DNA of 64,000 bases from Patescibacteria group bacterium (GCA_026004595.1 BPJL01000007.1:12460-76459), one strand, 5' to 3'; numbered from the stretch's first letter, positions 6,309 to 59,567 are shown. The notes: generated by a model from the letters alone, not told the origin. Numbers and translations are program-made.

Positions 6309-6318
6309 GATCTTTTTT

Positions 6319-10128: not shown

Positions 10129-10149
10129 AAACATATTCTATAATAAAAA

Positions 10150-11297: not shown

Positions 11298-11298
11298 A

Positions 11299-12441: not shown

Positions 12442-12450
12442 TTTAATTGG

Positions 12451-34668: not shown

Positions 34669-34699
34669 TTGTTTTTTTAAAAAAAAGACAAGCCAAAAA

Positions 34700-36742
34700 A
34701 TGGATAAAATAAAACTACCAAAAGACAGCACAGGGTACTTTAGTGGTAAAAGAATAACAAACGAGTTAATTAAAAAATATGACGCTTCCCAAGTTGAGAT
34801 AATGAACGACATTTTCAAAGATGCAACGTTCGAAGACGTTGACTTAAACTCTTGGGACGTATCAAGGGTTAAGTCGATGAAGGGTGCTTTTATGAACAGT
34901 TTGGGAACCGTAAACATCTCACAGTGGAACGTGTCAAAGGTAAGGGACATGAGTCACATGTTTAAAAACTCGTCTTTTAATGGCGACATTTCAAATTGGG
35001 ACGTGTCAAACGTGAGAAACATGAGCTTTATGTTCTGTAAAACAAAGTTTAACAGCGATATATCACATTGGAATGTTTCAAACGTTAGGTTTATGATTGG
35101 CATGTTCACTGAGTCGGAATTCAACGGCGACATATCACGTTGGAATGTTTCAAACGTGATAAGCATGAGACAAATGTTCACTATGTCAAAGTTTAACGGA
35201 GACATATCACGTTGGAACGTTTCAAACGTGAAAAACATGTCGTCCATGTTCGCCCGTTCACAGTTTAACAGGGACATATCAGATTGGAACGTTTCAAAGG
35301 TAAGGGATATGAGCTACATGTTTTATCAATCACGTTTCAACGGAGACGTTTCAAATTGGAATGTTTCGAACGTGAGAAACATGATTCGCATGTTCTGTAG
35401 GTCTGATTTTAACAGTAACATTTCAAATTGGGACGTGTCAAACGTGAGAAACATGAGCAGTTTGTTTGAATCAACAAAGTTTAATGGAGACATATCAAAA
35501 TGGAACGTGTCGAAAGTGAGAAACATGAGTCGCATGTTCTGTAGGTCTGATTTTAACAGGGACATTTCAAATTGGAACGTGTCAAACGTGAGGAACATGA
35601 TCGATTTGTTTGGAGGATCAAAGTTTAATGGAGACATATCACGGTGGGACGTGTCAAACGTGATAGACATGAGCTTTATGTTCTGTAAATCAAAGTTCGA
35701 TGGAGACATTTCAAATTGGAACGTGTCAAACGTGATAGACATGAGATATATGTTTTATGAATCAAAGTTCGATGGAGACATTTCAAATTGGAACGTGTCG
35801 AACGTGAGAAACATGAGCTGTATGTTTTATGGATCAAAGTTCGATGGAGACATATCAAAATGGAACGTGTCGAACGTAAGGGACATGAGTCGCATGTTCT
35901 GTAGGTCTGTTTTTAACAGGGACATTTCAAATTGGGACGTGTCAAACGTGAGGTACATGAGATTTATGTTTGATAACTCGTCTTTTAATGGCGACATATC
36001 ACGGTGGGACGTGTCGAACGTGAGAGACATGAGCTTTATGTTTTACGGATCAAAGTTCGATGGAGACATTTCAAATTGGAACGTGTCGAACGTGAGAAAC
36101 ATGAGCTGTATGTTTTATAAATCAAAGTTCGATGGAGACATTTCAAATTGGAACGTGTCGAAAGTGAAGGACATGAGTAGCATGTTCTGTAGGTCTGTTT
36201 TTAACAGGGACATTTCAAATTGGGACGTGTCAAACGTGAGGGACATGAGTCACATGTTTGATAACTCGTCTTTTAATGGCGACATATCACGGTGGGACGT
36301 GTCGAACGTGAGAGACATGAGCTTTATGTTTTACGGATCAAAGTTCGATGGAGACATTTCAAATTGGAACGTGTCAAACGTATGGGGTATGAGTCACATG
36401 TTTTATGAATCAAAGTTCGATGGAGACATTTCAAATTGGAACGTGTCAAACGTGATAGACATGAGCCATATGTTTCATGAATCAAAGTTCGATGGAGACA
36501 TTTCAAATTGGAACGTGTCGAACGTAAGGGATATGAGTCACATGTTTGCTCTTTCGAGGTTCGACGATGACATATCCAAATGGGACGTTTCAAACGTCGA
36601 AGACATGAGCTATATGTTCTTTCAATCAAAGTTCAACGGCGATATATCACGGTGGAACGTTTCAAACGTGAAAAACATGACCAACATGTTCCTTCTTTCG
36701 GATTTCAACGGCCACTTTTCACCTAGAATATCTCAAACGTGA
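34700..36742 (+). CDS. BspA-like / DUF285 ('Mycoplasma-type') leucine-rich-repeat protein, ~26 tandem 24-aa repeats
   Basis: Repeating 'FNGDISNWNVSNVRNMSHMFxxSx' units (72-nt period). ATG 'MDKIKLPKDSTGYFSGKRI' at 34700. The track start at 34652 is a TTG. Confidence 0.8.
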   Translation: MDKIKLPKDSTGYFSGKRITNELIKKYDASQVEIMNDIFKDATFEDVDLNSWDVSRVKSMKGAFMNSLGTVNISQWNVSKVRDMSHMFKNSSFNGDISNWDVSNVRNMSFMFCKTKFNSDISHWNVSNVRFMIGMFTESEFNGDISRWNVSNVISMRQMFTMSKFNGDISRWNVSNVKNMSSMFARSQFNRDISDWNVSKVRDMSYMFYQSRFNGDVSNWNVSNVRNMIRMFCRSDFNSNISNWDVSNVRNMSSLFESTKFNGDISKWNVSKVRNMSRMFCRSDFNRDISNWNVSNVRNMIDLFGGSKFNGDISRWDVSNVIDMSFMFCKSKFDGDISNWNVSNVIDMRYMFYESKFDGDISNWNVSNVRNMSCMFYGSKFDGDISKWNVSNVRDMSRMFCRSVFNRDISNWDVSNVRYMRFMFDNSSFNGDISRWDVSNVRDMSFMFYGSKFDGDISNWNVSNVRNMSCMFYKSKFDGDISNWNVSKVKDMSSMFCRSVFNRDISNWDVSNVRDMSHMFDNSSFNGDISRWDVSNVRDMSFMFYGSKFDGDISNWNVSNVWGMSHMFYESKFDGDISNWNVSNVIDMSHMFHESKFDGDISNWNVSNVRDMSHMFALSRFDDDISKWDVSNVEDMSYMFFQSKFNGDISRWNVSNVKNMTNMFLLSDFNGHFSPRISQT

Positions 36743-36880: not shown

Positions 36881-36912
36881 GATTGTTTTTAAAAAAAAGA
36901 CAAGCCAAAAAA

Positions 36913-44361: not shown

Positions 44362-45273
44362 ATGTGGTATAGACTCAATGATCTTATCAACTCCATAGTT
44401 ATAACAAACAACACAATAATCGTTTCAAGACACCTTAATAAAATAAGCTTTCATTGGTTTGATAACTATGTTGATCTGTTTAGAAAGTTAAACAAAACCG
44501 AACCAAAAACCTTTTTTGAAGTGATTCTCGGTGATAGAAAACAGAAAGTTTACTTTGATATAGACCATGCTGATCTTAGCACTGATGGAAAACAGTTAAT
44601 AGAGAACATAAAGGTTTCCCTTCTACAACTTTTCCCTTTTATCAACCCAAACAAGATTTTAGTGTTTAGTTCCAACAAGGGAAAAGAGATTAAAAAGCTT
44701 TCTTATCACATAGTCGTTGATGGGTGGTGTGTTTCTAACAACTTGATAAACAAGGAAATAGCAAAAAGGATAAACAACGATGCAATTGACCTTTCAGTCT
44801 ATAAGTCAGTACAGCAGTTGAGAATACTATGGAACAGTAAATATGGAGATGACAGAGTTAAAATACTCGACCCGGTTTGCAATGAGAAAACAGACTATGA
44901 ACCACTTGAGCTGTTTAGCAGTTCACTTGTAACAAACGTTAACGATTGCTCGCTAATACCCTTTGAGCAGCCTGTTATAAAACAACCGGTTTTTAAGGTT
45001 GATAACATTAACGTGGAAAAGGCCTTAGATCTTCTATCAGAGTACCTTAAAACGGAAGATATGCCCTTTAAGTTCAGTAAAATAGTAAACAATTTAATTA
45101 TTCTTAGAAGAACAAGGTCTTTTTACTGTGAAAAGTGTGAAAGAGTTCATGACTCGGAAAACCCTTTCATAGCAATTATAAACGGAGACTATTACTATTT
45201 TTGTAGAAGAAATGTAAAGGGAGTAAAGCTCAATGATAGAAAAAAACTTTGGATGAAAGTGCTACTCAGTTAA
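44362..45273 (+). CDS. Archaeo-eukaryotic primase (AEP/Prim-Pol-like) with C-terminal zinc ribbon
   Basis: Motif I 'KVYFDIDHAD' (DxD), motif II 'LSYHIVVDG' (sxH), motif III region 'YKSVQQLRILWNSKYG', then 'CEKCERVHDSENPFIAIINGDYYYFCRR'. Confidence 0.55.
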   Translation: MWYRLNDLINSIVITNNTIIVSRHLNKISFHWFDNYVDLFRKLNKTEPKTFFEVILGDRKQKVYFDIDHADLSTDGKQLIENIKVSLLQLFPFINPNKILVFSSNKGKEIKKLSYHIVVDGWCVSNNLINKEIAKRINNDAIDLSVYKSVQQLRILWNSKYGDDRVKILDPVCNEKTDYEPLELFSSSLVTNVNDCSLIPFEQPVIKQPVFKVDNINVEKALDLLSEYLKTEDMPFKFSKIVNNLIILRRTRSFYCEKCERVHDSENPFIAIINGDYYYFCRRNVKGVKLNDRKKLWMKVLLS

Positions 45274-45527
45274 AAATGAGTTCAAGGTTTTCGTTTCCAG
45301 AACAGAAAGATATACTGCACACAGAGACAGATGATCTTCACAGCTTTAAAAGCATAGTAAACATAGTACACATATTGAAGACTGTTGATGTGGAAAAGCT
45401 AGAGAAAAACGAGTACTCTTTTTACAAATTAAAAAAGATAGCAAAGATGCTTAATATGATAACCACATCCAATGATAAACGTTTGCTCTCAAGCAGATTA
45501 AAATTTAAGATCTCTTATCTAAAATGA
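45249..45527 (+). CDS. Small hypothetical ORF (92 aa) overlapping the primase 3' end in another frame
   Basis: Track ORF only. It could be a frameshifted C-terminal extension of the primase or spurious. Confidence 0.2.
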   Translation: MDESATQLKMSSRFSFPEQKDILHTETDDLHSFKSIVNIVHILKTVDVEKLEKNEYSFYKLKKIAKMLNMITTSNDKRLLSSRLKFKISYLK

Positions 45528-45531
45528 GTAC

Positions 45532-47370
45532 GTGATTAAAAGTAGCTTCTTAAAAATGGAAACCAACATAAGAGAAGAATTAGAGAAACTTATACCAGAA
45601 ATCAGGTCCCCGATAAAAGAGATATCAGACCTGGCTAGAGAACAGATAATCGACAAACTAGCAATAATACTAAGTGATAACATTATGGACGATAAGTTAA
45701 AAAGACTTATCGTTACCTCTTTTTACAGGAGCAGAGCTGAGCCCGGTCATCATGTGGGAATAGAGGCATCAGAAGGTCTAGCCGGTCCAATGACACAGAT
45801 GACGCTATCCGGTTTTCATCAAGCCGGTTCCGCTGCTAACATTAGCTCCGGCATAGAAGCCCTAAAAGAGATACTTAACATCACCAAGAAAAGAAAGGCA
45901 GAAAGGACAACAATACACTTTAAAAACAGATACCTTTTACCCAACGAGATACTTGATCTAAAAAAAGAAATAGTAGGAGTGACAGTGAAAGACCTATTGA
46001 TTCAGTCGCCGAGAGACTTTTTGAACAAAGAAGAGGACAGTTGGTATGAAGCATTCAAAAGAATATTTTCAATAGAGTCCTTACCTCCAATATCAACACG
46101 GCTAAGACTAAACAGAAACAAGCTATTCGAATACGAGATAACAACGTATGAAATAATAGAAAAGATAAAGAAACAGTTTAAGGAGATAATTGCAATACCA
46201 TCTCCAATATCAGGTGAAAGTATCTATATTGACGTTTTTCCAACTGCTGAAGTTGTAAACAAGCACAGCAAAAAGCTTTCATCGGCGGGTAACCTGGAGG
46301 ATAAAATGCAACTCTTTCTTACTCAGGTGTTTAAACCGTCACTTGAGACAATAGTTATAAAGGGAATACCCGGAATAAGTGAAATCTTTCCAGAAACGGT
46401 AAGGGTTACCAAGATGATAAAAAACGTCTCAAGAAAAAACGACTGGTACATCTGGCTTGATAACATCAAGATGTTATACGGTGGGATCGATCGGGAAAGG
46501 GTTGCCGAGGTGATAGAAGCATCGGGAATAGAGATCGTAGAAACAATAAAAAGCGAGAAAATATGGATACCAATGGGCTTTAGGGTAAAGGCAGATGAAA
46601 ACCCATTAGAACTAATAAACAGAAGACTCAACGAGGAAGAGGAAAAACTAAGAGAAACGGGTGTGTCGTCTGACCTGTATAGAAAGGGAAATTACAGTTT
46701 TGTTTATGCTAACGGAAGTAACTTAAGAAAAGTTTTAACACACCCTTTAATAGACCCAAGAATTTCCATATGCAATAACATACTCGAAATAAACTCAGTA
46801 ATTGGTATACAGGCTGTTAACAACTTTATAATAAAAGACGTTTATGAGACAATAACCAACTCTTCGTCTTACTGTTCACCAAAACACATAGTACTTCTTG
46901 CAAACTTTATGACTGCGATAGGGTTGGTGCCGGTAACGTCAAGTGGTGTTTCAAAACACAACAGAGGTGCTTTCACCGATGCAACGTTTGAGCAGACAGT
47001 AGAGGCCTTTTTCAACGCAGCCTTAATAGGAAGATGGGAAGAAACAAGTGCAACATCAACGTCACTTTTCATAGGAGAGAGGGGAAGGTATGGAACGGGA
47101 ATATGCGAAGTTGAATTTGATGAAGAGGGAATGAAGGCGTTAGTCGGAGAAGAGAAAGAAACGGAAACCTTTAAAGAAGAGGTTACCGGAGCACAGATAA
47201 ACCCAGTCATTTTGGAGGAAAACGAAAACGACTATATATCAGAGAAGGTGATGCTTGAAACAAGCAAAGCAATGCTATTGGAACAACAGTCAGATGATGA
47301 GTCAGAAGACGTAGAAGAGATAGTAGACGAGAAGGTCATGAAACTAATCCAGGAACTTGCAAACGGCTAA
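45532..47370 (+). CDS. RPB1: RNA polymerase largest subunit, C-terminal portion (A''-like: trigger loop/domains G-H) with acidic tail
   Basis: 'AEPGHHVGIEASEGLAGPMTQMTLSGFHQAGSA' matches the conserved RPB1 trigger-loop region (…GEP.TQMTLNTFH.AGV…). Also 'GVSKHNRGAFTDATFEQTVE…'. There is no NADFDGD in this gene. Confidence 0.75.
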   Translation: MIKSSFLKMETNIREELEKLIPEIRSPIKEISDLAREQIIDKLAIILSDNIMDDKLKRLIVTSFYRSRAEPGHHVGIEASEGLAGPMTQMTLSGFHQAGSAANISSGIEALKEILNITKKRKAERTTIHFKNRYLLPNEILDLKKEIVGVTVKDLLIQSPRDFLNKEEDSWYEAFKRIFSIESLPPISTRLRLNRNKLFEYEITTYEIIEKIKKQFKEIIAIPSPISGESIYIDVFPTAEVVNKHSKKLSSAGNLEDKMQLFLTQVFKPSLETIVIKGIPGISEIFPETVRVTKMIKNVSRKNDWYIWLDNIKMLYGGIDRERVAEVIEASGIEIVETIKSEKIWIPMGFRVKADENPLELINRRLNEEEEKLRETGVSSDLYRKGNYSFVYANGSNLRKVLTHPLIDPRISICNNILEINSVIGIQAVNNFIIKDVYETITNSSSYCSPKHIVLLANFMTAIGLVPVTSSGVSKHNRGAFTDATFEQTVEAFFNAALIGRWEETSATSTSLFIGERGRYGTGICEVEFDEEGMKALVGEEKETETFKEEVTGAQINPVILEENENDYISEKVMLETSKAMLLEQQSDDESEDVEEIVDEKVMKLIQELANG

Positions 47371-47394
47371 GATTGCATGGTCAAAAACGCCAAT

Positions 47395-49995
47395 ATCCCG
47401 CTATAGCCCGTTAAACCCTTTCTAAAACAAATTTTGTTATCAATGATCAAAAAACGCTAAAAACATGCTTTTTTATCCCGATATCACCCGTTTTAAAAAG
47501 CATGTTTTCATAGCCACTAGATGATATATACTACTGTGTTTCGCAAAGCGTTTTAAAAGAAATAAGGCAAAAAACACACGTGAAGTGTCTGGTGATAAAT
47601 GGTCTTTGAGAAACATTTGATAGCTTTAAACTCTCAAACAAACTTTGATCAATTGTCTCACCGAGGCGTGTTTCGTTAAACACTTTCTAAAACAGTCTTT
47701 TAAATAATTGTTATCTATGATAAAACTTTGATCAAAAAATGCCAAAAACATACTTTTTTATCCTAGTTTATCCCGATGAGAAAAGCATGTTTTCATGACC
47801 ACTAGATGGTATATACTACTCACTTTTACGCAAGCGTTACAAGTTTTCTACAAAGAATTAAAATAAAAAACACACGGGATATAGTCGGGCTTAATCGGTT
47901 TTGGAAAATGCTTGTGATACTTTGAAAAACACTTGGTTATCAAACAAACGATTCACCGACGCATGTTTCGTTAAACACTTTCTAAAACAGTCTTTTAAAA
48001 AAATTGTTGTCAGTGATAAAACTTGATCAAAAAACACCAAAAACATGCTTTTTTATACCTGTTTATCCCGTTAAGAGCTAAAGCTATGGCCACTAGATGG
48101 TATTACTATGTTTCGCAAAGCGTAACAAGGTTTTTTATAAAAAATAAGATATAAATCACACATGATATAGCCGGTGATAATTAGTCTGTGAGACATGTTT
48201 GATAATCTTTAAACCCTTAAACAAACTTTGATCAAGTGTCTCACTGAGGCACGTTTCGATAAACACTTTCTAAAACAGTCTTTTTTAAAAAAACTATTCT
48301 CGTGATAAACTTTGATCAAAAAACGTTAAAAACATACTTTTTTATCCCAGTATATCCCGTTATAAAAAGCATGTTTTTATGGCCACTAGATGGTATATAC
48401 TGCTCACTTTTTACACAACTGTTCACAAAAAATAAGATATAAAACACACGGGATGTAGCTGGTGATAATTGGTCTTCGGGACACGTTTAGTGTGCTTTAA
48501 ACCCTTAAACAAACTTTGATCAAGTGTCTCACTGAGGCACGTTTCGATAAACACTTTCTAAAACAGTCTTTTTTAAAAAAACTATTCTCGTGATAAACTT
48601 TGATCAAAAAACGTTAAAAACATACTTTTTTATCCCAGTATATCCCGTTATAAAAAGCATGTTTTTATGGCCACTAGATGGTATATACTGCTCACTTTTT
48701 ACACAACTGTTCACAAAAAATAAGATATAAAACACACGGGATGTAGCTGGTGATAATTGGTCTTCGGGACACGTTTAGTGTGCTTTAAACCCTTAAACAA
48801 ACTTTGATCAAGTGTCTCACTGAGGCACTTTTCGATAAACACTTTCTAAAACAGTCTTTTTTAAAAAAACTATTCTCGTGATAAACTTTGATCAAAAAAC
48901 GTTAAAAACATACTTTTTTATCCCAGTATATCCCGTTATAAAAAGCATGTTTTTATGGCCACTAGATGGTATATACTGCTCACTTTTTACACAAACTGTT
49001 CACAAAAAATAATATAGAAAACACACGGGATGTAGCTGGTGATAATTGGTCTTCGGGACACGTTTAGTGTGCTTTAAACCCTTAAACAAACTTTGATCAA
49101 GTGTCTCACTGAGGCACGTTTCGATAAACACTTTCTAAAACAGTCTTTTTTAAAAAAACTATTCTCGTGATAAACTTTGATCAAAAAACGTTAAAAACAT
49201 ACTTTTTTATCCCAGTATATCCCGTTATAAAAAGCATGTTTTTATGGCCACTAGATGGTATATACTGCTCACTTTTTACACAAACTGTTCACAAAAAATA
49301 ATATAGAAAACACACGGGATATAGCTGGTGATAATTGGTCTTCGGGACACGTTTAGTGTGCTTTAAACCCTTAAACAAACTTTGATCAAGTGTCTCACTG
49401 AGGCACTTTTCGATAAACACTTTCTAAAACAGTCTTTTTTAAAAAAACTATTCTCGTGATAAACTTTGATCAAAAAACGCCAAAAACATACTTTTTTTAA
49501 CGGGATACACCGGGATAAAAAAGCATGTTTTTATGGCCACTAGATGGTATATACTGCTCACTTTTTACACAAACTGTTCACAAAAAATAAGATATAAATC
49601 ATACGGGATGTAGCCGGGCTTAATCGGTTTTGGAAAATGCTTGTGAACTTTAAACCAAACGTGCATCAAGTGATTCCGACGCATGTTTCGTTAAACAAGT
49701 TTCTAAAACATTTGTTGTCAGTCATAAAACTTGATCAAAAAACGTTAAAAACATGCTTTTTTATCCCAATATCACCCGTTGTAAAAAGCATGTTTTCATA
49801 GCCGCTAGATGGTATATACTACTCGTTTTTACGCAAGCGTTAACAAAAAATTAAAATAAAATTACACGGGATATAGTCGGGCTTAATTGGTTTTCGGGAC
49901 ATGCTTGATTTTACCGAAATGTTTTGTTAAACCCTTTCTAAAACATACTTTTTATCCCTTTATCACCCGTTGAAAGAAGCATGTTTTTATGGCTG
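47395..49995. repeat. Tandem repeat array 3: ~9 copies of the ~290-bp unit family (same orientation as array 2), including 4 near-identical homogenised units (48390-49570)
   Basis: 'AAAAAGCATGTTTTTATGGCCACTAGATGGTATATACTGCTCACTTTTTACACAA...' recurs with period ~290. The last degenerate unit supplies the stop codon of gene 49987..51606. Confidence 0.95.
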
Positions 49996-51606
49996 ATGCT
50001 GTATGTTTAACTTATCGTAAAAGTCCTGGGGTAAATCTGGTAGTTCTACATCTTCGTAAACGGGATTGTCTGGTATGTTAGTCTTGTCGTTAACAACTTT
50101 TACTGTCCCTTTTATATGCAAGTCTCCTATAAAATATTCTTCCTCATTGTCTGCATAAAATATGTACAGTGTTCCCTTCTTTTCTATTACCGGGTGATTA
50201 AGTGTTATTAAAAACCTTGTTCCCTCTTTCGAAGAAAAGGCTATTATCTTCTCTGGGGGTTCTTCGTAGTAGTAAACTGGATTAAGCAGGTTAAGTGAAA
50301 AGTAAACTCCATTTTTATCCATATAGATACTGTCTCTTGCTCTTACCATAATTCTTTTTGAGTAGTTTTTCTCTAACAGCTCCTGATCAATCTTTGTTTC
50401 TATTTCTCCCTCTGGCATCTCTCCAAAGATATCAACGATTGATCTGTCGATATGCTTTCTGATGTTTTCATCATAATGATAAAGCTTTAATAGTGTTACC
50501 AGATCAGATGTTTCGGCTTTATCATTTTTTTCTTTCCATTTCTCACGACTGGAAAGCCTGTACTTTTCAAGAAAGCTTTCTCCCTCGTCTATCACTGAAG
50601 GAAATTTCCTTAAGAGTGGCTCAGACTTTTCTATTATTGCCACTATTGCTGCTCCGAGTAGTTTGTTTTCCTCATACCTTTCATACCAGTCGTATAGAAA
50701 CGAAGCACTGTCGATTGAAATCTTTTTCTTGAAACTGAGAACAAAGTCTCCTCTTGATGTTACCATATTATCATTTATCATGTTTCTCTTCTTTAGTCTC
50801 TTTAGAGACTTTAAGCAGTAGTATTCATCAAACACTGTTTTCGGGTCTATTTTAGTCTTAAACAACTCCAGTATTCTAATGTCATGTGATTTTACTACCT
50901 CTTTCTTTTTCAGATAAACAATCTTTTTGTAAAAGTCTTTGGGCATCATTCTGTAGCAGAAGCCTTTCGTTAGTATCGCTGCTCTGCTTTTTATCGAAAC
51001 TCTACAGGCTATTCTGTTAAACTGATAGACGCTACCCGTGTCGGAAACGTTAATTTCGTTTTCCAGCATAAGATCAAACAGTCCCGTTACTGATTCTAAT
51101 TCAACGTTTTCCAAGAAGTCAGTTGAAACAACAAGTTTAAACTTTTCACTGTCCTGTTTAAGTATTTCAAGAGTTATTGATATTGGTGTTTTTATGCTTA
51201 TAAAGTGACTTGTTAAGTCCTTAAACTTTGGAAACACCATTTCGCTTGGAACGATAACAAGCCATAGTTCACCCGGTTTCCCCCTTTCTTCAATAAACCT
51301 TTTTATGGTATCAATGGAATCCCTGAAAATAATATCGTTCTCTGTAGAAAAATAGTACCTGTCATGATAGATCATCTCTATGTTTTTTTTCACACTTGGT
51401 TTCACCTTGTTCAAATTAACTCCCCTTGACTTAAGTAGTTTTATTACCATTTCACCATCAGCTGTTTTTAGCAGGTTATCAGTGTAAGTGTACTCATTGT
51501 CAACTGAGTCTGATAGTATTTTCTCCTTGAGTCTATCAACCGATATTGATCCTTCAACACCTAAAGCCTTTTTCAGCAAAACTACTGTTTCACTTGGTTC
51601 TATCAT
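49987..51606 (-). CDS. Hypothetical protein (539 aa)
   Basis: Long ORF. Its 3' end (…NIQHQP*) lies inside the terminal repeat unit. Confidence 0.65.
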   Translation of the reverse strand: MIEPSETVVLLKKALGVEGSISVDRLKEKILSDSVDNEYTYTDNLLKTADGEMVIKLLKSRGVNLNKVKPSVKKNIEMIYHDRYYFSTENDIIFRDSIDTIKRFIEERGKPGELWLVIVPSEMVFPKFKDLTSHFISIKTPISITLEILKQDSEKFKLVVSTDFLENVELESVTGLFDLMLENEINVSDTGSVYQFNRIACRVSIKSRAAILTKGFCYRMMPKDFYKKIVYLKKKEVVKSHDIRILELFKTKIDPKTVFDEYYCLKSLKRLKKRNMINDNMVTSRGDFVLSFKKKISIDSASFLYDWYERYEENKLLGAAIVAIIEKSEPLLRKFPSVIDEGESFLEKYRLSSREKWKEKNDKAETSDLVTLLKLYHYDENIRKHIDRSIVDIFGEMPEGEIETKIDQELLEKNYSKRIMVRARDSIYMDKNGVYFSLNLLNPVYYYEEPPEKIIAFSSKEGTRFLITLNHPVIEKKGTLYIFYADNEEEYFIGDLHIKGTVKVVNDKTNIPDNPVYEDVELPDLPQDFYDKLNIQHQP

Positions 51607-52400
51607 CTTTGACTAACACTGTCTAGCAGACCTTTTTCAGTTATTCTTAGTCTTTCGTAGTTGTTTTTTATCAACTCACGTACGTCACCCGTAAAGTCGT
51701 CTTCAATTAGTTTTAACTTTTTACAAAAGTCAACAAAACGCTTATCTCTTTTGGCAAGGTTAAGAAGGATTGACACTAGGCTATAGTTGTAACACCATTC
51801 ACAAGGGTACCCGGAAAGCATTCTGTCTACCAGGTTTCCAGTCGGGTTCTCATAGAAACCAACGTATCTTGTATTATCAAAAGTCAAACAAGAGTCTTCG
51901 TTGGGAATTAACACTGGTTTATCATTGATAAACATAACCTCTTCTATCACTGGGTAATTTAACTTTTTTAGCATTCCGACTATTTTAGACGTGATGTTTT
52001 CGGGTCTGTCTTTACTGGTGTTTTCTGTTTTTCTGTTTATCAGGAAAAGGTCATTTTTGCAAACCCATGCAAAGACAAAGTCAGTGATAAGATCCGAGCA
52101 AGAAAGCAACGTTGATATAACGGCTCTGTGCTCAAGTGGTGTATTCATAGCCCTAAAGAACAAAGTTTCATTAAAACTGTCCAAGATGTAATTTGAAAAA
52201 CATCTGTATGGATACTTTGTAACTGTGTATCCCTCGTTTGATTTTATCATAAAGTCTTTGAAAAGGTATGAAGCCCTTAAACAACCACTACAAAGAGAGT
52301 GACTTCTTGAACAGCAGGTCGATGTGGGAAAAATGGATTTAAGTGGATTCATATCACAACTCACATTCTTATGTAATAAATAAAATTTATTTTTGTCCAT
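51603..52400 (-). CDS. Hypothetical protein (265 aa), Cys-rich N-terminus
   Basis: ORF overlapping the previous gene by 4 nt (ATGA). Confidence 0.6.
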   Translation of the reverse strand: MDKNKFYLLHKNVSCDMNPLKSIFPTSTCCSRSHSLCSGCLRASYLFKDFMIKSNEGYTVTKYPYRCFSNYILDSFNETLFFRAMNTPLEHRAVISTLLSCSDLITDFVFAWVCKNDLFLINRKTENTSKDRPENITSKIVGMLKKLNYPVIEEVMFINDKPVLIPNEDSCLTFDNTRYVGFYENPTGNLVDRMLSGYPCEWCYNYSLVSILLNLAKRDKRFVDFCKKLKLIEDDFTGDVRELIKNNYERLRITEKGLLDSVSQR

Positions 52401-52421
52401 TTACTATACAAATAATAAAAA

Positions 52422-54845
52422 ATGACTTCACAATATGAGAAACTGTTCATCAATATCCCCCAGGGTAAAATTAGATATTCCATTGTTAATCTTCCTGTAC
52501 CAAAAAGACTGATGGTTGCCAAGGCTGAAAAGAAAAACAGAATAGAACACTATGACCCGTCTAGTGGGACGGTTGATAGTCTGGTCTTTGGGACTACGGT
52601 CGATGAGTTCGACTGTGATACCTGTAAACTAAACAGGCTATGGTGCCCGGGACACCTTGGTTACATAGACCTTTCAAAGTTCCCGGTTATAAACCCAAAA
52701 CTTAGAAAAAAGTTGGCCAAAATACTTAACTGTTTCTGTGTTGAAACCGGCGAACCAAAGTTTGATACCAACCGCTACAACCTGTTTTTGCATCTAAAGT
52801 TTCTTAACGAAAAGTATAAGGGTGCTAAGTGTCACGAGGGCCACGAAAGAGTCATTTTTGTTGTTACCAAACAGAATAGAAAGAACGTTATTTTTAAATA
52901 TGTTGGAAAAAACACTGAAAAGGTTTCAGTTTCACCAATGGAAATCATAAAGTACCTTGATAGAATAGACAGCAGATACAAAATCAAGCCGTTGAACAGG
53001 GCTCTTGTTATAAAGAGATTACCAGTTATTCCTCCTTGTGTTCGCTACTACGGTGTCTTTAACGGTGATAAAAAAATTGCTCATCCAATAACAAGACATT
53101 ACAACGGAATACTCCAGAGAATAGAAAGGCTAAAGTCAAGTCGTGTTGACAGGGAATCAAACGCAAGAAATGACATATTTTCTCTTGTATCAGAGCTTTT
53201 TAACGAGATAGAGAATGAACTAAAAAACAAAAAGGGATACATAAGAGCATCAGTCATGGGTAAAAGGGTAAACTTTAGTGGCAGAACAGTGCTCGGTCCC
53301 TATAACAGGTTAGACTTTGGAATGATAATGATACCAAAGCTAATGAAGTACGTTCATACGATTCCAATAACGGTTACAACTTTTAATCAGAATGTTATGA
53401 GAGAGTTTCTCAGAAGAAGAATGGTAAAAACTGTTATTCTTGGTGACAGACAGGTGTTAAAGGGTGTTACAATAAAGCCCGATAGCAACTATACACCGTT
53501 ACCCGGAGACGTGCTTGAAATTTATGGTAGACAGGGAGACGAGGTGATTTTTAACCGTCAACCAACCCTTGATAAGCAGTCCATTATGGGTTATAGAGTA
53601 CAGTACCTTGATGACTACTACTGCTTTGGTCTTCACTCTTCTTACACTACACCTCATAACGCTGATTTTGACGGCGACGAGGGTAACCTGCATAAGATTC
53701 AAAACGTTGAAGCCCGTGCTGAAGTGAGACACATTGTTTCCGTTGAAAACTGTCTTATGAACCCAAAGACTAACCGTCCAGCTTTCGGACTAGTTTACAA
53801 CTGCATTTCAGCCGGTTATCTGATATCAGAAGCAGAAATTGATAAAAAGTGGTTTATAAGTTTAGCAGAAAAACTGGGGTTACTTGAGGATAAAAGACTA
53901 AATAGATGGTTAGAAGAGAAAAGAAAGTTAACCGGAAAGGAACTTTTCAGTCTCTGTTTACCAGACGACTTTAACTATAGCAACAGATCAGTAGTGATAA
54001 TAAACGGTGTTTTTACGTCTGGTAGACTAACCTCATCACACTTAGCCCCAACGGAACACTCAATTTTGCATCGTATCTATAAAACACGCGGAAAAAAAGA
54101 TGCTGTTAGGTTTCTTACCCTTGGGCAACGTATACTAGACGAGTTTCTTGGATACTATGGTCTTTCGATAGGCATTTCCAGTCTGGTGCCAAAGAAACTT
54201 AGTATAATCAAGAAGCTTGTTGAGAACGTGATTCAGAAAACCATATTTAATATAAAGGCTATACCAGAGGGGTCTATAAACAGAGAGAACAAAATCTGTA
54301 ACGCGCTTAACACAGTTACAAGAATAGGAATACAGATAAGCAAAAACGTACTTAAACCAGAAAACCCTCTTAACGTAATGTCACTCTCGGGCGCGAAGGG
54401 AAAAGAAGCAAACACTGCTCAAATAATTGGAAGTCTGGGTCAACAGTACATTTTTGGATCAAGACCGGAGAAGACGTTAACACTAAAAACAAGGTGCCTT
54501 CCGTACTTTGAACCGAACAGCCCTGATCACGACATAGAATCAAGGGGCTTTGTAAAAGAGTCGTTTATGGAAGGAGCTGACCCTCCAGGGTTTATCTTTC
54601 ACATGATGGCTTCAAGGGTTGGTCTTATCGACTCAGCGATAAAGACTGGAGACATTGGCTACTCTCACAGAAAGCTTGTTAAGTCGTTAGAAAACCTTGT
54701 GCTTGAATACGACGGAACAGTGAGGGATAACAGAGGTAACATTTTCAATTTCTCATATACAGACGGGTTCTACGCTGGAGAGCTGTTAACCGTTAGCAGC
54801 GCACAGTTAACAACACTCTGTTTTGTTTACCCGAAAGAATTTTGA
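52422..54845 (+). CDS. RPB1: RNA polymerase largest subunit, N-terminal portion (A'-like: clamp/zinc, active site, bridge helix), paralog 1
   Basis: Zinc motif 'CDTCKLNRLWCPGHLGYIDL', 'RASVMGKRVNFSGRTVLGPY', catalytic 'YTTPHNADFDGDEGNLH', bridge-helix region 'ESRGFVKESFMEGADPPGFIFHMMASRVGLIDSAIKTGDIGYSHRKLVKSLEN'. It ends just after the bridge helix. Confidence 0.85.
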   Translation: MTSQYEKLFINIPQGKIRYSIVNLPVPKRLMVAKAEKKNRIEHYDPSSGTVDSLVFGTTVDEFDCDTCKLNRLWCPGHLGYIDLSKFPVINPKLRKKLAKILNCFCVETGEPKFDTNRYNLFLHLKFLNEKYKGAKCHEGHERVIFVVTKQNRKNVIFKYVGKNTEKVSVSPMEIIKYLDRIDSRYKIKPLNRALVIKRLPVIPPCVRYYGVFNGDKKIAHPITRHYNGILQRIERLKSSRVDRESNARNDIFSLVSELFNEIENELKNKKGYIRASVMGKRVNFSGRTVLGPYNRLDFGMIMIPKLMKYVHTIPITVTTFNQNVMREFLRRRMVKTVILGDRQVLKGVTIKPDSNYTPLPGDVLEIYGRQGDEVIFNRQPTLDKQSIMGYRVQYLDDYYCFGLHSSYTTPHNADFDGDEGNLHKIQNVEARAEVRHIVSVENCLMNPKTNRPAFGLVYNCISAGYLISEAEIDKKWFISLAEKLGLLEDKRLNRWLEEKRKLTGKELFSLCLPDDFNYSNRSVVIINGVFTSGRLTSSHLAPTEHSILHRIYKTRGKKDAVRFLTLGQRILDEFLGYYGLSIGISSLVPKKLSIIKKLVENVIQKTIFNIKAIPEGSINRENKICNALNTVTRIGIQISKNVLKPENPLNVMSLSGAKGKEANTAQIIGSLGQQYIFGSRPEKTLTLKTRCLPYFEPNSPDHDIESRGFVKESFMEGADPPGFIFHMMASRVGLIDSAIKTGDIGYSHRKLVKSLENLVLEYDGTVRDNRGNIFNFSYTDGFYAGELLTVSSAQLTTLCFVYPKEF

Positions 54846-54857
54846 GCGAAGCTCGTT

Positions 54858-55076
54858 CTAGCATTCGAGTTCAGACTTGATAACAAAAATCAAAACCATA
54901 CCAGTAAAATAAAGCCAGTTATAGATAAGCCTTTTACAGACATTATAGTTACTAAGGATAAAAAAGAAAAATATAATCTCGTAGATAATAGACATGATAA
55001 TAAACCTTATCAGATTGATGCTGTTTAGCATGATTCCACTAAACATTCCAGCGCAGAAGGAAAGGATGATAAACAT
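54858..55076 (-). CDS. Small hydrophobic ORF (72 aa) in the spacer between the two RPB1-N paralogs
   Basis: Track ORF. AT-rich spacer, could be spurious. Confidence 0.2.
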   Translation of the reverse strand: MFIILSFCAGMFSGIMLNSINLIRFIIMSIIYEIIFFFFILSNYNVCKRLIYNWLYFTGMVLIFVIKSELEC

Positions 55077-55108
55077 TTGAATATACGCAGATTAGTTTAT
55101 TTAATCAA

Positions 55109-57496
55109 ATGTACAGACATAGTTTTGATGAAATCAAACACGGAAAGATAAAGGCTGTTAGTGTTAGTCTCTTGAGCCACGAGGAGCTTAGTAGTTTAAA
55201 GCTTGTGGTATGCAACAACCCTGAGTACGAGGGGTTAAACAGTCCCAACGATCCAAGGCTTGGTACTGTTGAACCGGGGTCACTGTGCTATAGCTGTCAT
55301 CAGACGCCGTTTTTCTGTCCCGGTCACCTTGGCATGATAGAGTTAAACGAATGGTTTATACACCCTAAACTTACTGACGTTGCGATAAAGATTCTGATGT
55401 CAATCTGTAACTCATGTGCTTCACTGCTTATACCACCTGAAGTGATTGACAAGCTTGACTTGTCTAGCATGTCTTTCCAAGCTAGACTAAGAGAAATAGC
55501 TAACATGTCAGTTAAGATAAAGAGGTGCACTAACAAAAGCGTTGACCCGCTAGGAATAAAAAGACCGTGCTTGCCTAACCCAAAGTTTTTCCCGTTGGAA
55601 TCAAAGGGCTTACACGTGGTGATCTGTGAGTACAAAAACGGTGTTAAGTTAGAGAAAAAGGTAAAAGACATTTACGATCTTTTTTCCAGAATGGACGAAA
55701 GGTCTATAAGGGCGTTGGGTTTCACGGGTAAAACTCACCCAAAGGACCTTATCATAAGGTCTTTCCCCGTTATTCCTCCTAGAGCAATACCACGTATGTA
55801 CAGGGACGACAAAATACTCTATGATCACATAACCTCTGCTTACGTGGACATAATAAGACAGAATAACCTGCTTAAAACGATGTTACAGAAGCAAGTAGAT
55901 CACACTGACATTGATATAAAAAGAGTAACTAGAAACATCTATTTTTATATGTCACATCTGATAGACAATAACGACAAAAAGTACACCAGATCAAGGGAAG
56001 AACCGATACAGTCTTTAGTGGAAAGACTAACGAACAAAGATGGGTTAATAAGGTCAAGTGTAATGGGTAAAAGGGTGAACTTTGTTTCACGGGCTGTACT
56101 GGGACCGTATAACAAAGTTGAGTTCGGTAAAATTGTTTGTCCTTCTGTTTTGAAAAGGTATCACACGTTGCCAATAGCTGTCTGTAAGTTTAACATTGGT
56201 TATCTGAACAGACTGTACAGAAGTGGAAAGGTAGTCAACCTAATTTTACCCAACGGGAACATTTATGAGATAAACAATAACACTAGAGATAAACACAAAC
56301 TTACTATAGGTGCAACGGTTGAGGTGGAGGGGAAAAATGGAGACGAGGTGATTTTTAACCGTCAGCCTACCCTTGACAAGCAGTCCATTATGGGTTATAG
56401 AGTACAGTACCTTGATGACTACTACTGCTTTGGTCTTCACTCTTCTTACACTACACCTCATAACGCTGACTTTGATGGTGACGAGGGTAACCTACACAAA
56501 ATTCAAAACGTTGAAGCACGTGCTGAAATAAGACACATTGTTTCCGTTGAGAACTGTCTTATGAACCCAAAGACCAACAGTCCGACTTTTGGTTTGGTTT
56601 ACAACTGTGTTTCGGCTGCTTACCTTTTATCAAAGACTAACCCTGACCTCTTTTCTGTATTATTACCTGAAGACTTCTGTTACAAAAAGGGTGATCTGGT
56701 TATAAAAAACGGTAAAATAGTATCAGGCTATATCACGAAGGAGCACATTGGCACTTCAGACGGGTCGATAATGCAAAGGCTATACAAGGAGTACGGTAAG
56801 AAAAGGGCTGTTAAGTTTCTTACAGAGGGACAGATACTGCTTGATCAGTTCCTAATGTATTATGGTCTCTCGGTTGGTTACTCTTCAATAATACCAAAGA
56901 ACGCCTCTTTGATAGAAAAGCTAATAGACAATATGATAGACAAAGCCAAAATGAGAATAGTAGCAATCAAAGACGAAACGAAAATACTGAACAGCCTTAA
57001 CATGGTATCCAGAATAGGACAACGTATTTCGCTTAAAGCCCTTGATGAACTTTCACCACTCAATGTTATGTGCAGATCTGGTGCTAAAGGAAAAGAGGTT
57101 AACATAGCACAGATAATAGGCTGTTTGGGTCAACAGTACATTTTCGGATCAAGGCCGGAGAAAAGCTTCACACTTGGTTCAAGGTGTCTTTCTTACTTTG
57201 AGCCCCACTCCGAAGAAATAGAATCAAGAGGATTTGTGAGAAACTCGTTTGAAAAGGGGTTAGACGTTACCGAGTTTATTTTTCACATGATGGCATCAAG
57301 GGTTGGTTTGATGGACTCCGCGTTAAAAACAGCTGACATTGGTCATCTTCATCACAAGATTGTTAAGTCAATGGAGGACATAGTATTAGAGTACGACGGT
57401 ACAGCAAGAAACTGTAACGGTATTGTGATAGACTTTATGTACGGGTTTTACAGTTCAGAATTAACCAGGCGAAATGGTCTACTTACGTTTTTCTAG
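55109..57496 (+). CDS. RPB1: RNA polymerase largest subunit, N-terminal portion (A'-like), paralog 2
   Basis: 'CYSCHQTPFFCPGHLGMIEL', 'RSSVMGKRVNFVSRAVLGPY', 'YTTPHNADFDGDEGNLH', 'ESRGFVRNSFEKGLDVTEFIFHMMASRVGLMDSALKTADIGHLHHKIVKSMED'. ~60% identical to paralog 1 overall, with a ~100-aa block that is ≥95% identical. Confidence 0.85.
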   Translation: MYRHSFDEIKHGKIKAVSVSLLSHEELSSLKLVVCNNPEYEGLNSPNDPRLGTVEPGSLCYSCHQTPFFCPGHLGMIELNEWFIHPKLTDVAIKILMSICNSCASLLIPPEVIDKLDLSSMSFQARLREIANMSVKIKRCTNKSVDPLGIKRPCLPNPKFFPLESKGLHVVICEYKNGVKLEKKVKDIYDLFSRMDERSIRALGFTGKTHPKDLIIRSFPVIPPRAIPRMYRDDKILYDHITSAYVDIIRQNNLLKTMLQKQVDHTDIDIKRVTRNIYFYMSHLIDNNDKKYTRSREEPIQSLVERLTNKDGLIRSSVMGKRVNFVSRAVLGPYNKVEFGKIVCPSVLKRYHTLPIAVCKFNIGYLNRLYRSGKVVNLILPNGNIYEINNNTRDKHKLTIGATVEVEGKNGDEVIFNRQPTLDKQSIMGYRVQYLDDYYCFGLHSSYTTPHNADFDGDEGNLHKIQNVEARAEIRHIVSVENCLMNPKTNSPTFGLVYNCVSAAYLLSKTNPDLFSVLLPEDFCYKKGDLVIKNGKIVSGYITKEHIGTSDGSIMQRLYKEYGKKRAVKFLTEGQILLDQFLMYYGLSVGYSSIIPKNASLIEKLIDNMIDKAKMRIVAIKDETKILNSLNMVSRIGQRISLKALDELSPLNVMCRSGAKGKEVNIAQIIGCLGQQYIFGSRPEKSFTLGSRCLSYFEPHSEEIESRGFVRNSFEKGLDVTEFIFHMMASRVGLMDSALKTADIGHLHHKIVKSMEDIVLEYDGTARNCNGIVIDFMYGFYSSELTRRNGLLTFF

Positions 57497-59102
57497 TGAA
57501 AAAAAGTCTTATTTCTTCTCTAACGGCGATAAACTCATCTTTTCTTTCTTTTTTAACAACAATGTTTTCTTTATCAGTCTTTTTTACTTTTCCCACAGCT
57601 TTTATTAAAAGTAAAGGGTTAATAAAGGGTATTAAGGGAACCTGGTGAAAGTCATTATGCCTTGCCTCGTTCTCTATCTGAAAGTTTATTGGGGCGAACG
57701 GTTCAAGCTTTCCTCCCGGTTCTATCAGAGGTGCTAACTTTCCGATAATACTGCTGTGAGAAGGCGGTATTACTGCGACGAGTTGATGTGGTATTTCCAG
57801 TTTTACATCAGGAAAGTCAAACTCTGGTTCACCACAATGATGATAAAGGTCTCTTATAAGTGGTGCTCTGTAGTAGCTGTAGACAAAACCGTCTGTCCCC
57901 CTTCCAGAGTAGTAACTCATAACCCATTGAAGGCCGTAAAGGTACAGTTTAGACATACGTTCTATGTCGTCAGCGTCTGGCTCCGTCGGAGAACAGATGA
58001 CTTTGCCGGTTGACGTTTTTGGTTCCTGTTCCTTTAGGTACCAGTGCTTGCGAAAAGTTTCATAGTTTTCAACGAGGTAAAGTAGCTCTGAACCGAACCT
58101 AAAGTTTATTTTTGACTTTTTTATCAAAAGTTCATGTTCGTGAGAGGACATCACCCTAAGTAGACTTTTAAGCGACCTCCAGTTAATTTTATAGTTTTCA
58201 ATGTTAACTAGTGGCCTTGTGCATATCTTTTTAACAAAAACAGCATTGTAGAGACAGATTAGGTAAGAAACTGAAGTCTCAACGTCAGTAAAGGCAAAAA
58301 GTTTTGGTAGAAAATCATTACCCAAAAAGGTTATCAGTAAAACAAAGTCTGCTACTATGTTTTCTTTAGTTAGGTTAGTGCCACTTCCCATCTTTTCAGC
58401 GAGGTAGTCTGTGAACTGCTTAATGCTGATAAAACCGTCTACTGATTCCTGGGAAACAACTATTTTGTCTCTAAAGGGGCTTAAAAGTGACAGTATGTTT
58501 AGATCACTGTCCTTAGAAAATATAATATGATAGCCATTTCCATCCTCTATTTCACCTTTTCTTATCAAGTCTATGATCTTATGTTCGCCTTCTCCCTTTA
58601 CAGCATAAGACGAATAAATAACCTTTTCACATGGGAAATCACTGCTTCTTATCCAGTCAACTATCTTTTTGTCTATGCTTTTCATAAGTTCTGTACCGGG
58701 TGTTATCTCAATCGGCGAGACCACTGTCGTGTCTTTTAGTGATGCTATGTACCTTCTAGTCCTTTGCTGTGTTATCTTTGCAAAGGGAGCCACACCGTCA
58801 ACTGAAATCACTACTGTTTTAGACGGCTTGTATTCGTTGATAAGAAAGTTTAGTATCTCCACTATCACCATTAGCATTTCGTCTATAAGCTGTTTCCTTT
58901 TTATTTTTGCTAATGCCTTTTTTCTGTTTTCGTACTCTTGATCATTAGAAAACAGTGTTCTGTCAGAAGCAGTAACATAGTTCCTAGCAGTGTGAAGTAT
59001 GCCGTTAGCGTCTATCAGTAGACTTAGTACGCTACTACATGTTCTGCTAACATTGACGATTCTAAGTCGTCTAATCCAAAAGTTAAACGTGTCTATACCC
59101 AT
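57483..59102 (-). CDS. XRN-like / PIN-domain 5'-3' exonuclease (539 aa)
   Basis: The N-terminus 'MGIDTFNFWIRRL…LLIDANGILH' matches XRN N-terminal motifs (MG[IV]PKFFRW…LY[LI]DMN[GS]IIH). Acidic residues lie downstream. An FEN1/XPG-like alternative is not excluded. Confidence 0.5.
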   Translation of the reverse strand: MGIDTFNFWIRRLRIVNVSRTCSSVLSLLIDANGILHTARNYVTASDRTLFSNDQEYENRKKALAKIKRKQLIDEMLMVIVEILNFLINEYKPSKTVVISVDGVAPFAKITQQRTRRYIASLKDTTVVSPIEITPGTELMKSIDKKIVDWIRSSDFPCEKVIYSSYAVKGEGEHKIIDLIRKGEIEDGNGYHIIFSKDSDLNILSLLSPFRDKIVVSQESVDGFISIKQFTDYLAEKMGSGTNLTKENIVADFVLLITFLGNDFLPKLFAFTDVETSVSYLICLYNAVFVKKICTRPLVNIENYKINWRSLKSLLRVMSSHEHELLIKKSKINFRFGSELLYLVENYETFRKHWYLKEQEPKTSTGKVICSPTEPDADDIERMSKLYLYGLQWVMSYYSGRGTDGFVYSYYRAPLIRDLYHHCGEPEFDFPDVKLEIPHQLVAVIPPSHSSIIGKLAPLIEPGGKLEPFAPINFQIENEARHNDFHQVPLIPFINPLLLIKAVGKVKKTDKENIVVKKERKDEFIAVREEIRLFFTRKT

Positions 59103-59138: not shown

Positions 59139-59567
59139 ATGGATAAAGAGTTTCAAGGTAGCACTGTTCATACAAAAAGAGATGAGGGAAATAAAATAGC
59201 AACAGTTTCTCAGAAAAAAGATATCAGACAGGTTATCAGTTGGTTAGACGGGAAAGAGGTAAAAGACCCTTTTCTTCTGTATGAAGCTGAAGTCACCGAG
59301 GGGCTAAAAGAGCTTATCAGAAACAGTGAAAACAGGGGAAGGCGAATCATCTTTGACTTACCCTGTTTTGATTCGTGTAGACGTCACTATGAAGAGGAAA
59401 AGAGAAGAATACTTTCCAAAACTAACATGATAACCGGTTTCTACGCCTGTAAGAAGTGTAAAAGCCAGAACACAAGGACAACTATAATACAGATGGCAAG
59501 AGGAGACGAGGCCGATACTCATATCACAGAGTGCTTTAACTGTGGCTACAGGTGGTCAGAAACCTAA
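59139..59567 (+). CDS. TFIIS/RPB9-type zinc-ribbon transcription elongation/cleavage factor
   Basis: C-terminal 'FYACKKCKSQNTRTTIIQMARGDEADTHITECFNCGYRW' matches the TFIIS_C ribbon (C-x2-C…Q[TM]RSADE…C-x2-C-x3-W) including the acidic hairpin (DE). Confidence 0.7.
   Translation: MDKEFQGSTVHTKRDEGNKIATVSQKKDIRQVISWLDGKEVKDPFLLYEAEVTEGLKELIRNSENRGRRIIFDLPCFDSCRRHYEEEKRRILSKTNMITGFYACKKCKSQNTRTTIIQMARGDEADTHITECFNCGYRWSET

Follow-up and report, generated by a model that had tools for sequence, protein, structure and literature searches.

A largest RNA polymerase subunit encoded in two parts, with the break near the archaeal A'/A'' boundary, on a probably pithovirus-like giant-virus contig filed as Patescibacteria

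The locus

We analysed a stretch of 64,000 nucleotides (nt), hereafter the window, that is deposited under the name Patescibacteria group bacterium (GCA_026004595.1, BPJL01000007.1:12460-76459) and in which RPB1, the largest RNA polymerase (RNAP) subunit, is encoded in pieces. Three genes are concerned: one for the C-terminal part of the subunit (the C-part) and two paralogous genes, A and B, for its N-terminal part (the N-parts). The C-part gene lies about 5 kb upstream of the N-part genes, from which it is separated by a tandem repeat array and two genes on the opposite strand. The features of this region are as follows, with positions counted from the first nucleotide of the window and protein lengths given in amino acids (aa).

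45556..47370, plus strand: C-part (A''/Rpo1C-like, 604 aa); Pfam Rpb1_5 positions 67-265 of 267, E 5.5e-25
47444..49901, no strand assigned: tandem array between the C-part and the N-parts; 289-nt unit, 8.6 copies, 2.46 kb
49987..51606 and 51603..52400, minus strand: two intervening open reading frames (ORFs; 539 aa and 265 aa); ORF calls with no Pfam match
52422..54845, plus strand: N-part paralog A (A'/Rpo1N-like, 807 aa); Pfam Rpb1_1-4 and Rpb1_5 positions 2-64
55109..57496, plus strand: N-part paralog B (795 aa); Pfam Rpb1_1-4 and Rpb1_5 positions 1-63

A first-pass annotation of this DNA had proposed ORFs at 45532..47370 (612 aa), 52422..54845 (807 aa) and 55109..57496 (795 aa), with a repeat array and two unrelated minus-strand genes between the parts and the C-part first. 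All of these elements are indeed present. None of the three ORFs is interrupted, and the catalytic, zinc, bridge-helix and trigger-loop motifs are all preserved. Two start codons can be considered for the C-part, a GTG at 45532 (612 aa, the NCBI call) and an ATG at 45556 (604 aa). The sequence around them makes the ATG the more likely start, because it stands in the A-rich 'AAAAATG' context typical of most genes of the window, and an independent gene call (P0001) also starts the C-part there. Each of the three genes has its own A-rich ATG context, as have other genes of the window.

A scan with Pfam profiles placed Rpb1 domains 1-4 on the 807- and 795-aa proteins and domain 5 on the 612-aa protein, the distribution that the first-pass annotation had predicted. 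The Rpb1 matches on all three proteins are above the gathering scores, and the E-values of the RNAP domain matches are far beyond chance. Read across the parts, domains 1-5 follow one another in order and domain 5 is divided at profile position 64/67; the C-part holds positions 67-265 of this domain and no other domain.

The motifs that had been quoted for these proteins (NADFDGDEG, bridge helix, trigger loop) were located in the sequence. Paralog A has its zinc clamp at 52614..52655, the catalytic NADFDGDEG at 53658..53684 and the bridge helix at 54591..54662. The same elements of paralog B lie at 55286..55327, 56462..56488 and 57275..57346, and in each N-part the zinc motif has the form C..C...C.GH. 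Paralog A (807 aa) is homologous to yeast Rpb1 325-876, and 26 residues follow its last RNAP-homologous residue before the stop. Paralog B is without about 33 aa of domain 3 that are present in paralog A and in most relatives, and its Rpb1_3 match begins only at profile position 67.

The C-part consists of the trigger loop (GPMTQMTLSGFHQAGSA, 45784..45834), a jaw-like middle region, a cleft/clamp-core C-terminal region and an acidic tail, in which no heptads of the C-terminal domain (CTD) were found. It is homologous to yeast Rpb1 1049-1129 and 1307-1462. An AlphaFold2 (AF2) model of the C-part alone is mediocre (predicted local distance difference test, pLDDT, 62.6), with low confidence in the regions that would pack against the N-part; a Foldseek search with this model found the C-terminal part of Pol II Rpb1 (E 1.5e-15).

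Hidden RNAP pieces adjoining the C-part were considered and rejected, as the neighbouring ORFs, one of 303 aa (44362..45273) and one of 92 aa starting with TTG (45249..45527), have no RNAP match in Pfam. A small ORF of 83 aa from its first ATG (45276..45527) lies directly upstream of the C-part and is also called in an independent Logan assembly (DRR290133, L168). No family matches it significantly; a TPR-like hit is weak and lies below the threshold.

Position of the break

The break point was mapped by aligning the last 160 residues of the 807-aa N-part, and the head of the C-part, to all PDB chains. Residue 781 of this N-part corresponds to residue 852 of 880 of Sulfolobus A', which leaves 26 residues in the former and 28 in the latter, and to residue 874 of 906 of Thermococcus A'. 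On the archaeal A' profile PRK08566 the N-part is matched to position 854 of 883. On the other side of the break, the C-part (604-aa numbering) pairs its residue 14 with residue 8 of Sulfolobus solfataricus A'' (2pmz_C), and its residue 6 with residue 7 of chain 36rp_C. According to these alignments both new termini fall within about 10 residues of the archaeal A' end and A'' start, and the earlier claim that the break point is that of archaeal RpoA'/RpoA'' agrees with the PDB and PRK08566 alignments to this precision.

In yeast numbering the N-part ends at about 876 and C-part homology restarts at 1049; the segment 877-1048 of Rpb1, the foot, has no counterpart. The foot region (the Pfam Rpb1_6 region) measures about 70-85 residues here, about 78 in Sulfolobus and about 172 in yeast. 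The cut lies in a surface region that is the foot domain of eukaryotes and is shared here by the N-part tail and the C-part head.

The archaeal enzyme has its bridge helix within Rpo1N, and both trigger loop and jaw within Rpo1C (PMC2675907). The locus resembles it in this allocation, its first piece containing the bridge helix and its second both trigger loop and jaw, and in its small foot. Unlike archaeal A'', of about 392-397 aa, the C-part is 604 aa long, an excess of about 200 aa that includes a larger jaw-like insert and the acidic tail. Archaeal A' and A'' genes are adjacent in an operon, A' then A'', whereas the genes described here are dispersed, the C-part precedes the N-parts and the N-part is duplicated; the window lacks the adjacent A'-A'' order.

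Cyanobacteria and plastids provide another natural fission of the largest RNAP subunit, in which beta' is divided into gamma/RpoC1 and beta''/RpoC2. However, the bridge-helix region of the N-part aligns to beta''/RpoC2 at about 165-235, and the cyanobacterial and plastid split therefore lies before the bridge helix. We found no paper that explicitly describes the break point of the present genes or its archaeal match, although such an absence is no proof that it is unpublished.

Relatives of the two parts

An exhaustive HMMER search with the C-part retrieved 5,610 proteins at E <= 1e-3, of which 523 reach E <= 1e-30. After clustering at 50% identity the best 150 representatives were considered, and N-part similarity is lacking in 149 of them. 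These 149 stand-alone C-parts all begin with methionine and have a median length of 780 aa; their starts lie ahead of that of the query by a median of 16 residues. The relatives of the N-part measure about 920-970 aa. Among the best 120 N-part homologs, all those with a locatable bridge helix end 65-260 aa after it, and none of the 120 has a trigger-loop motif.

Wherever the contig of a relative was inspected, its N-part or C-part gene was surrounded by unrelated genes. Neither tandem N-part pairs nor linkage between N- and C-parts were found within the 10-kb flanks of relatives, with the exception of locus L109 (IMGVR GVMAG-S-3300010158-109, 28% identity). This locus has the same break, at Rpb1_5 position 66/67, and its C-part gene (6864..8495) lies 1.5 kb upstream of its N-part gene (9971..12697) on the same strand. 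The C-first order is thus not unique to the window.

Of the IMG/VR loci, the six that come closest to the N-part (31-37% identity) have a split RPB1, whereas most of the more distant ones (27-30%) encode it contiguously, the break positions being about 160 residues apart. Full-length contiguous RPB1 was found at 69 of the 80 loci of the N-part scan and at nearly all loci of the C-part scan. Four of the more distant IMG/VR loci (L094, L099, L125 and L165) have a C-terminal RPB1 segment 2.6-4 kb downstream on the same strand, a spacing that suggests either large insertions (introns, inteins or inserted genes) or more independent splits.

One relative, P0300, is a fused RPB1 of 1688 aa that was recovered in two runs (L172/L173 274..5340; Logan SRR31418083 and SRR31418082). 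In its N region it shares 41-44% identity with split N-parts, and its junction consists of an N-tail-like sequence, about ten residues and the conserved C-head motif. Within the split clade, P0300 has either been fused again or never been split.

Among cultured viruses, cedratvirus virions hold peptides of two RPB1 products of about 107 kDa and of a 78-kDa product named 'RPB1 (Domain 5)' (PMC12724359). The masses were calculated from gene models, and the study demonstrates expression and packaging of the products (PMC12724359). In size these products fit the relatives retrieved here, those of the N-part with about 920-970 aa and those of the C-part with a median of 780 aa. Duplicate RPB1 genes have been noted in Cedratvirus and in both Pithovirus isolates (PMC5127014), and what we found on the split RPB1 in the literature on isolates consists of annotations and one sentence on the duplicates. 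The Pithoviridae (Pithovirus sibericum, P. massiliensis and Cedratvirus) are like the window in their duplicated N-size RPB1 genes, and Cedratvirus also in its separate 'RPB1 (Domain 5)' gene, a likeness known from annotations and sizes. The window differs from them in its shorter parts (795/807 and 604 aa) and in having the N-parts in tandem with the C-part 5 kb upstream. It combines N-part-only genes of about 800-1000 aa, a stand-alone domain-5 gene and a duplicated N-part, as pithovirus-like viruses do. The split RPB1 is a lineage-wide trait of pithovirus-like viruses, already annotated, and is not peculiar to this genome.

Other Nucleocytoviricota, such as most of the giant-virus metagenome-assembled genomes (GVMAGs) of IMG/VR, African swine fever virus and vaccinia virus (Rpo147), have the same RPB1 domains in the same order and no CTD heptads (27-30% identity; PDB matches 8q3b and 6rfl). 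Unlike the window, they encode the subunit in a single gene, and a foot of about 160 aa separates the positions that correspond to the N-part end and the C-part start. A further likeness may exist in the Iridoviridae, which belong to the same order, Pimascovirales: in invertebrate iridescent virus 6 there are two ORFs for one core gene, which we take to be the largest RNAP subunit. This likeness is one of listing, ORFs 176R and 343L being listed together as one iridovirid core gene (PMC5923455).

Duplication and gene conversion of the N-part

Paralogs A and B are 44% identical overall in a pairwise protein alignment. Identity is lowest in the first 260 or so residues (the clamp, 20-40%) and highest at the active site and bridge helix, where one segment was delimited in both genes.

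53535..53832, plus strand: gene-conversion tract of paralog A, 298 nt, 90% identical to 56339..56635
56339..56635, plus strand: gene-conversion tract of paralog B, partner of 53535..53832

At the protein level this block is 100% identical and covers the catalytic block, while outside the tract the paralogs are about 45-55% identical at the DNA level. Identity at synonymous third positions is 76-93% within the tract, whereas in the remainder of the two genes it is about 30-60%. Because synonymous sites are so much more alike in the tract than elsewhere, the active-site block has been homogenised by recent gene conversion, beyond what constraint on the protein would produce.

The relationship between the paralogs was examined in a neighbour-joining (NJ) tree with the conversion tract masked, calculated without support values and without Pithovirus, Cedratvirus, Orpheovirus, archaeal or eukaryotic sequences. 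The two paralogs fall into different clades, both of which include many environmental sequences: P0015-P0027 accompany the 795-aa paralog, and P0035, P0039, P0049, P0071, P0075 and P0102 the 807-aa paralog. Both clades are represented in one metagenome, by P0015 and P0039 on different scaffolds. The tree indicates that the N-part duplication is ancient. The fission would most simply have preceded this duplication, because both clades consist entirely of N-part-only proteins.

Evidence for separate polypeptides

The first-pass annotation had regarded the parts as separate genes and not as exons. This is borne out by the locus, where each part has its own ATG and stop, the C-part is upstream, opposite-strand genes lie between and there is no intein. 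A frameshift, an intron or an intein within one gene was rejected on these grounds. As the C-part is upstream of the N-parts and opposite-strand genes stand in between, cis-splicing cannot restore the order, and the Pfam scan found no Hint or intein domain in the three proteins. The same scan readily detected the intein of L090 (IMGVR 3300011264_000061, 6119..10648), a 1509-aa N-part-only gene with Intein_splicing and LAGLIDADG domains in the bridge-helix region.

The halves might instead be rejoined by RNA trans-splicing or by a split intein, so that the subunit would be a single full-length chain, split at the DNA level only. A viral precedent is the split terminase gene of mirusviruses, whose trans-splicing is reported in work that 10.1101/2024.03.23.586382 cites. 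Inteins occur in the family, in L090 and also in the N-part relatives P0062 and P0133 (PF14890), and the fused relative P0300 shows that a linker of about ten residues suffices. The sequences of the halves themselves, however, argue against rejoining. Beyond the lack of a Hint or intein domain, the N-part tails extend for only 16-26 aa after the last polymerase-homologous position and the C-part head (about 50 aa) aligns with the N-terminus of archaeal A'', which leaves no room for the halves of a split intein. The stops and the ATG are placed where the archaeal subunits end or begin, and the 149 stand-alone representatives have kept the C-part head together with an ATG of its own, a conservation that fits independent translation and not exons. 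We consider rejoining of the halves to be very improbable.

Still less credible is an artefact, whether by mis-assembly over the array, by chimerism of the contig or by decay of an intact RPB1 into pseudogene fragments. It is true that the contig is mis-binned as Patescibacteria and that the two N-parts fall short of their relatives by about 130 aa. The independent assembly L168 reproduces the C-part and its four upstream neighbours, but this short contig ends about 110 nt past the C-part stop codon, at the array edge; the linkage between the C-part and the N-parts is consequently documented by one assembly, the deposited contig. Nevertheless, the split is independent of the linkage, as the break is marked by the end or beginning of each ORF within its own flank, and the flank of the C-part is the one that L168 reproduces. 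All three ORFs have kept their key motifs intact, and this architecture recurs in cultured cedratviruses and in independent metagenomic proteins that number in the hundreds. Moreover, the PacBio HiFi reads of the Katase hot-spring study (52 °C, read N50 10.5 kb; PMC9671151) would span the 2.5-kb array, if the metagenome-assembled genome (MAG) is from that study, as its name leads us to suppose, although the string 'KatS3mg' is absent from the text of the paper.

It is thus likely, as far as the gene sequences can tell, that the largest subunit is built from two polypeptides that assemble non-covalently in the manner of archaeal A' and A''. Several points weigh against this interpretation and its extensions. 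The separateness of the products rests on gene sequence, the cedratvirus masses having been computed from gene models, and the trans-spliced terminase of mirusviruses is a case of the opposite kind. The window represents 64 kb of a 79-kb contig, and a second C-part or a full-length RPB1 may lie elsewhere in the genome. As regards the paralogs, the NJ tree carries no support values, and both cedratvirus N-type proteins are present in virions (PMC12724359), which fits poorly with a simple early/late or virion/late division.

Identity of the contig and its other genes

The two N-part proteins (795 and 807 aa) have exact matches in GenBank, on a contig of 79,304 bp from the MAG 'Patescibacteria group bacterium' (KatS3mg101), whose proteins include GIW70093.1 and GIW70096.1. 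The 807-aa N-part is GIW70096.1, annotated there as "RNA polymerase subunit A'"; the 795-aa N-part is entered as 'hypothetical protein KatS3mg101_0845' and the C-part is also 'hypothetical'. Judged by its genes, the window is part of a contig of a giant virus (Nucleocytoviricota), probably a pithovirus-like one, that was filed in a Patescibacteria MAG. We assign it to a giant virus because its gene content is of the type found in nucleocytoplasmic large DNA viruses (NCLDV): it encodes an Erv1/Alr thiol oxidoreductase, RPB5, a NUDIX hydrolase, a type II topoisomerase, an XRN exonuclease, TFIIS, a metacaspase, a DEAD-box helicase and two large DUF285-repeat proteins. No capsid or PolB gene is present in the 64-kb window, and six-frame motif searches of the window found no RPB2 and no extra RPB1 fragments. 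Two of the genes concern transcription.

17511..18032, plus strand: RPB5 homolog, a subunit of the same polymerase; Pfam RNA_pol_Rpb5_C, E 4.9e-9
59139..59567, plus strand: TFIIS-type transcript-cleavage factor, a partner of this polymerase class; Pfam Zn_ribbon_TFIIS, E 3.5e-8

The closest named relative of the C-part (33% identity) is encoded on an 855-kb scaffold labelled 'uncultured virus'. Permafrost scaffolds of 715-855 kb have been compared with isolated Pithoviridae by Rigou et al. (PMC9546926). The virus of the window is very divergent, its identity to any protein found being at most 33-47%. Its source is probably hot-spring sediment at 52 °C, a provenance deduced from the name of the MAG. 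An N-part homolog of 954 aa on an 88.7-kb contig (P0321) is labelled 'Candidatus Aenigmatarchaeota archaeon', and small-genome prokaryote bins appear to hide giant-virus contigs.

The array between the C-part and the N-parts belongs to a family of repeats of about 277-289 nt that forms arrays of 2.5-3.2 kb each at 2013..5237, 23349..25882 and 47444..49901. The array at 2013..5237 is inverted relative to that at 47444..49901, and each unit carries a 14-nt hairpin (AAAACATGCTTTTT / AAAAAGCATGTTTT). The three arrays occupy the only large non-coding gaps of the window, and GC content dips where they lie. They are reminiscent of the kilobase repeat arrays that are interspersed between genes in Pithovirus genomes, a further likeness of the window to the Pithoviridae. 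Repeats are also found within genes: the two DUF285-repeat genes lie side by side (34652..36742, 696 aa, 14 copies; 36883..39801, 972 aa, 18 copies) and are almost all repeat, with arrays at the DNA level of 72-nt and 288-nt periods.

The 807-aa N-part gene (52422..54845, plus strand) and the intervening ORF 51603..52400 (minus strand) form a divergent pair with a gap of only 21 nt. The last 14 nt of the 795-aa N-part gene (57483..57496) are shared with the tail of the XRN exonuclease gene, which converges on it from the minus strand (57483..59102).

Origin of the split

The first-pass annotation had called the split archaeal-style. This description is apt for the architecture, in which the cut is the same; for the ancestry it probably does not hold, since both parts score higher against eukaryotic Pol II. 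For the N-part, Pol II Rpb1 yields 272 bits and archaeal A' 223; for the C-part, Pol II yields 130 bits and archaeal A'' 106. The archaeal equivalog cut-off of 819 (TIGR02390/PRK08566) is missed by the 807-aa N-part (349.6) as well as by the 795-aa N-part (419.4). The C-part matches TIGR02389 (rpoA2) with E 8e-35, but its score of 120.5 is under the cut-off of 420.65. The scores being below the cut-offs, the three proteins are not archaeal RpoA1/RpoA2 equivalogs.

We favour convergent fission over retained archaeal ancestry, because of the Pol II-like scores, the missed cut-offs, the majority of contiguous RPB1 in NCLDV and the fused P0300. The foot is a plausible site of recurrent fission because it is peripheral and variable in length. 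The other possibility is that the split is ancestral, a two-gene A'/A'' subunit having been inherited from an archaeal or proto-eukaryotic donor before the fusion of its genes. The coincidence of the break within about 10 residues would be explained in this way, as would the archaeal size of the foot (about 70-85 residues against about 78 in Sulfolobus and about 172 in yeast). The split is also old and widespread in the clade and is found in the more distant GVMAG locus L109, with the profile break at 66/67. Nevertheless, inheritance of the split is unlikely. Both parts are closer in score to eukaryotic Pol II, and their archaeal equivalog scores are not marginal but far under the cut-offs (350 against 819 and 120 against 421). 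RPB1 is contiguous at 69 of 80 IMG/VR loci of the N-part scan and at nearly all of the C-part scan, the fused P0300 stands among split N-parts (41-44% identity), and the parts are dispersed while the archaeal genes are adjacent in an operon. A bolder extension, in which the viral polymerase would predate the A'/A'' fusion in the eukaryotic stem and would have inherited the break point, is less likely than the sharing of one C-part by two N-parts that is proposed below.

Discussion

The polymerase proposed here would draw its clamp, Mg-binding active site (NADFDGDEG), funnel and bridge helix from the N-part, and its trigger loop, jaw and C-terminal cleft and clamp-core elements from the C-part. 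Its history may have begun with a gene fission in the ancestor of a large pithovirus-like clade; the two parts would then have been dispersed in the genome, and the N-part alone duplicated long ago.

The window holds two N-parts and one C-part. This allows the tentative proposal, based on the gene complement, that the single C-part pairs with either N-part to give two polymerases that differ in clamp and dock and hence in their choice of factors or promoters. Two such isoforms would share one C-part and differ mainly in the surfaces of clamp and dock to which factors for initiation and elongation attach, and they may serve different gene classes or different stages of infection. A functional specialisation of the paralogs is at present a conjecture. 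If the proposal is true, the shared C-part would represent subunit swapping inside the catalytic core, which is possible only with a split largest subunit.

That the split is typical of the lineage was already known, being visible in isolate annotations, and to these the window adds a very divergent case. New here are the residue-level match to the archaeal subunits, the age and spread of the split and of the duplication, the conversion tract and the giant-virus identity of the contig. These results have practical consequences. Phylogenies and marker pipelines based on RPB1 must join the parts, choose between paralogs and mask conversion tracts, since an unmasked tract would distort any paralog phylogeny. 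The case also illustrates that giant-virus contigs are misnamed in public prokaryote MAGs.

The two-piece RPB1 with its duplicated front half is conserved and ancient in a very large environmental clade, rather than an oddity of a few amoeba isolates. This clade comprises at least 149 stand-alone C-part clusters at 50% identity and reaches to a probable 52 °C hot spring. The genes described here would be the second natural example, after Archaea, of a fission at the A'/A'' site, and an independent origin is favoured for them. Fission at this site on two occasions, together with the existence of a fused relative, would make the foot region a permissive place for cutting RNA polymerase's largest subunit.

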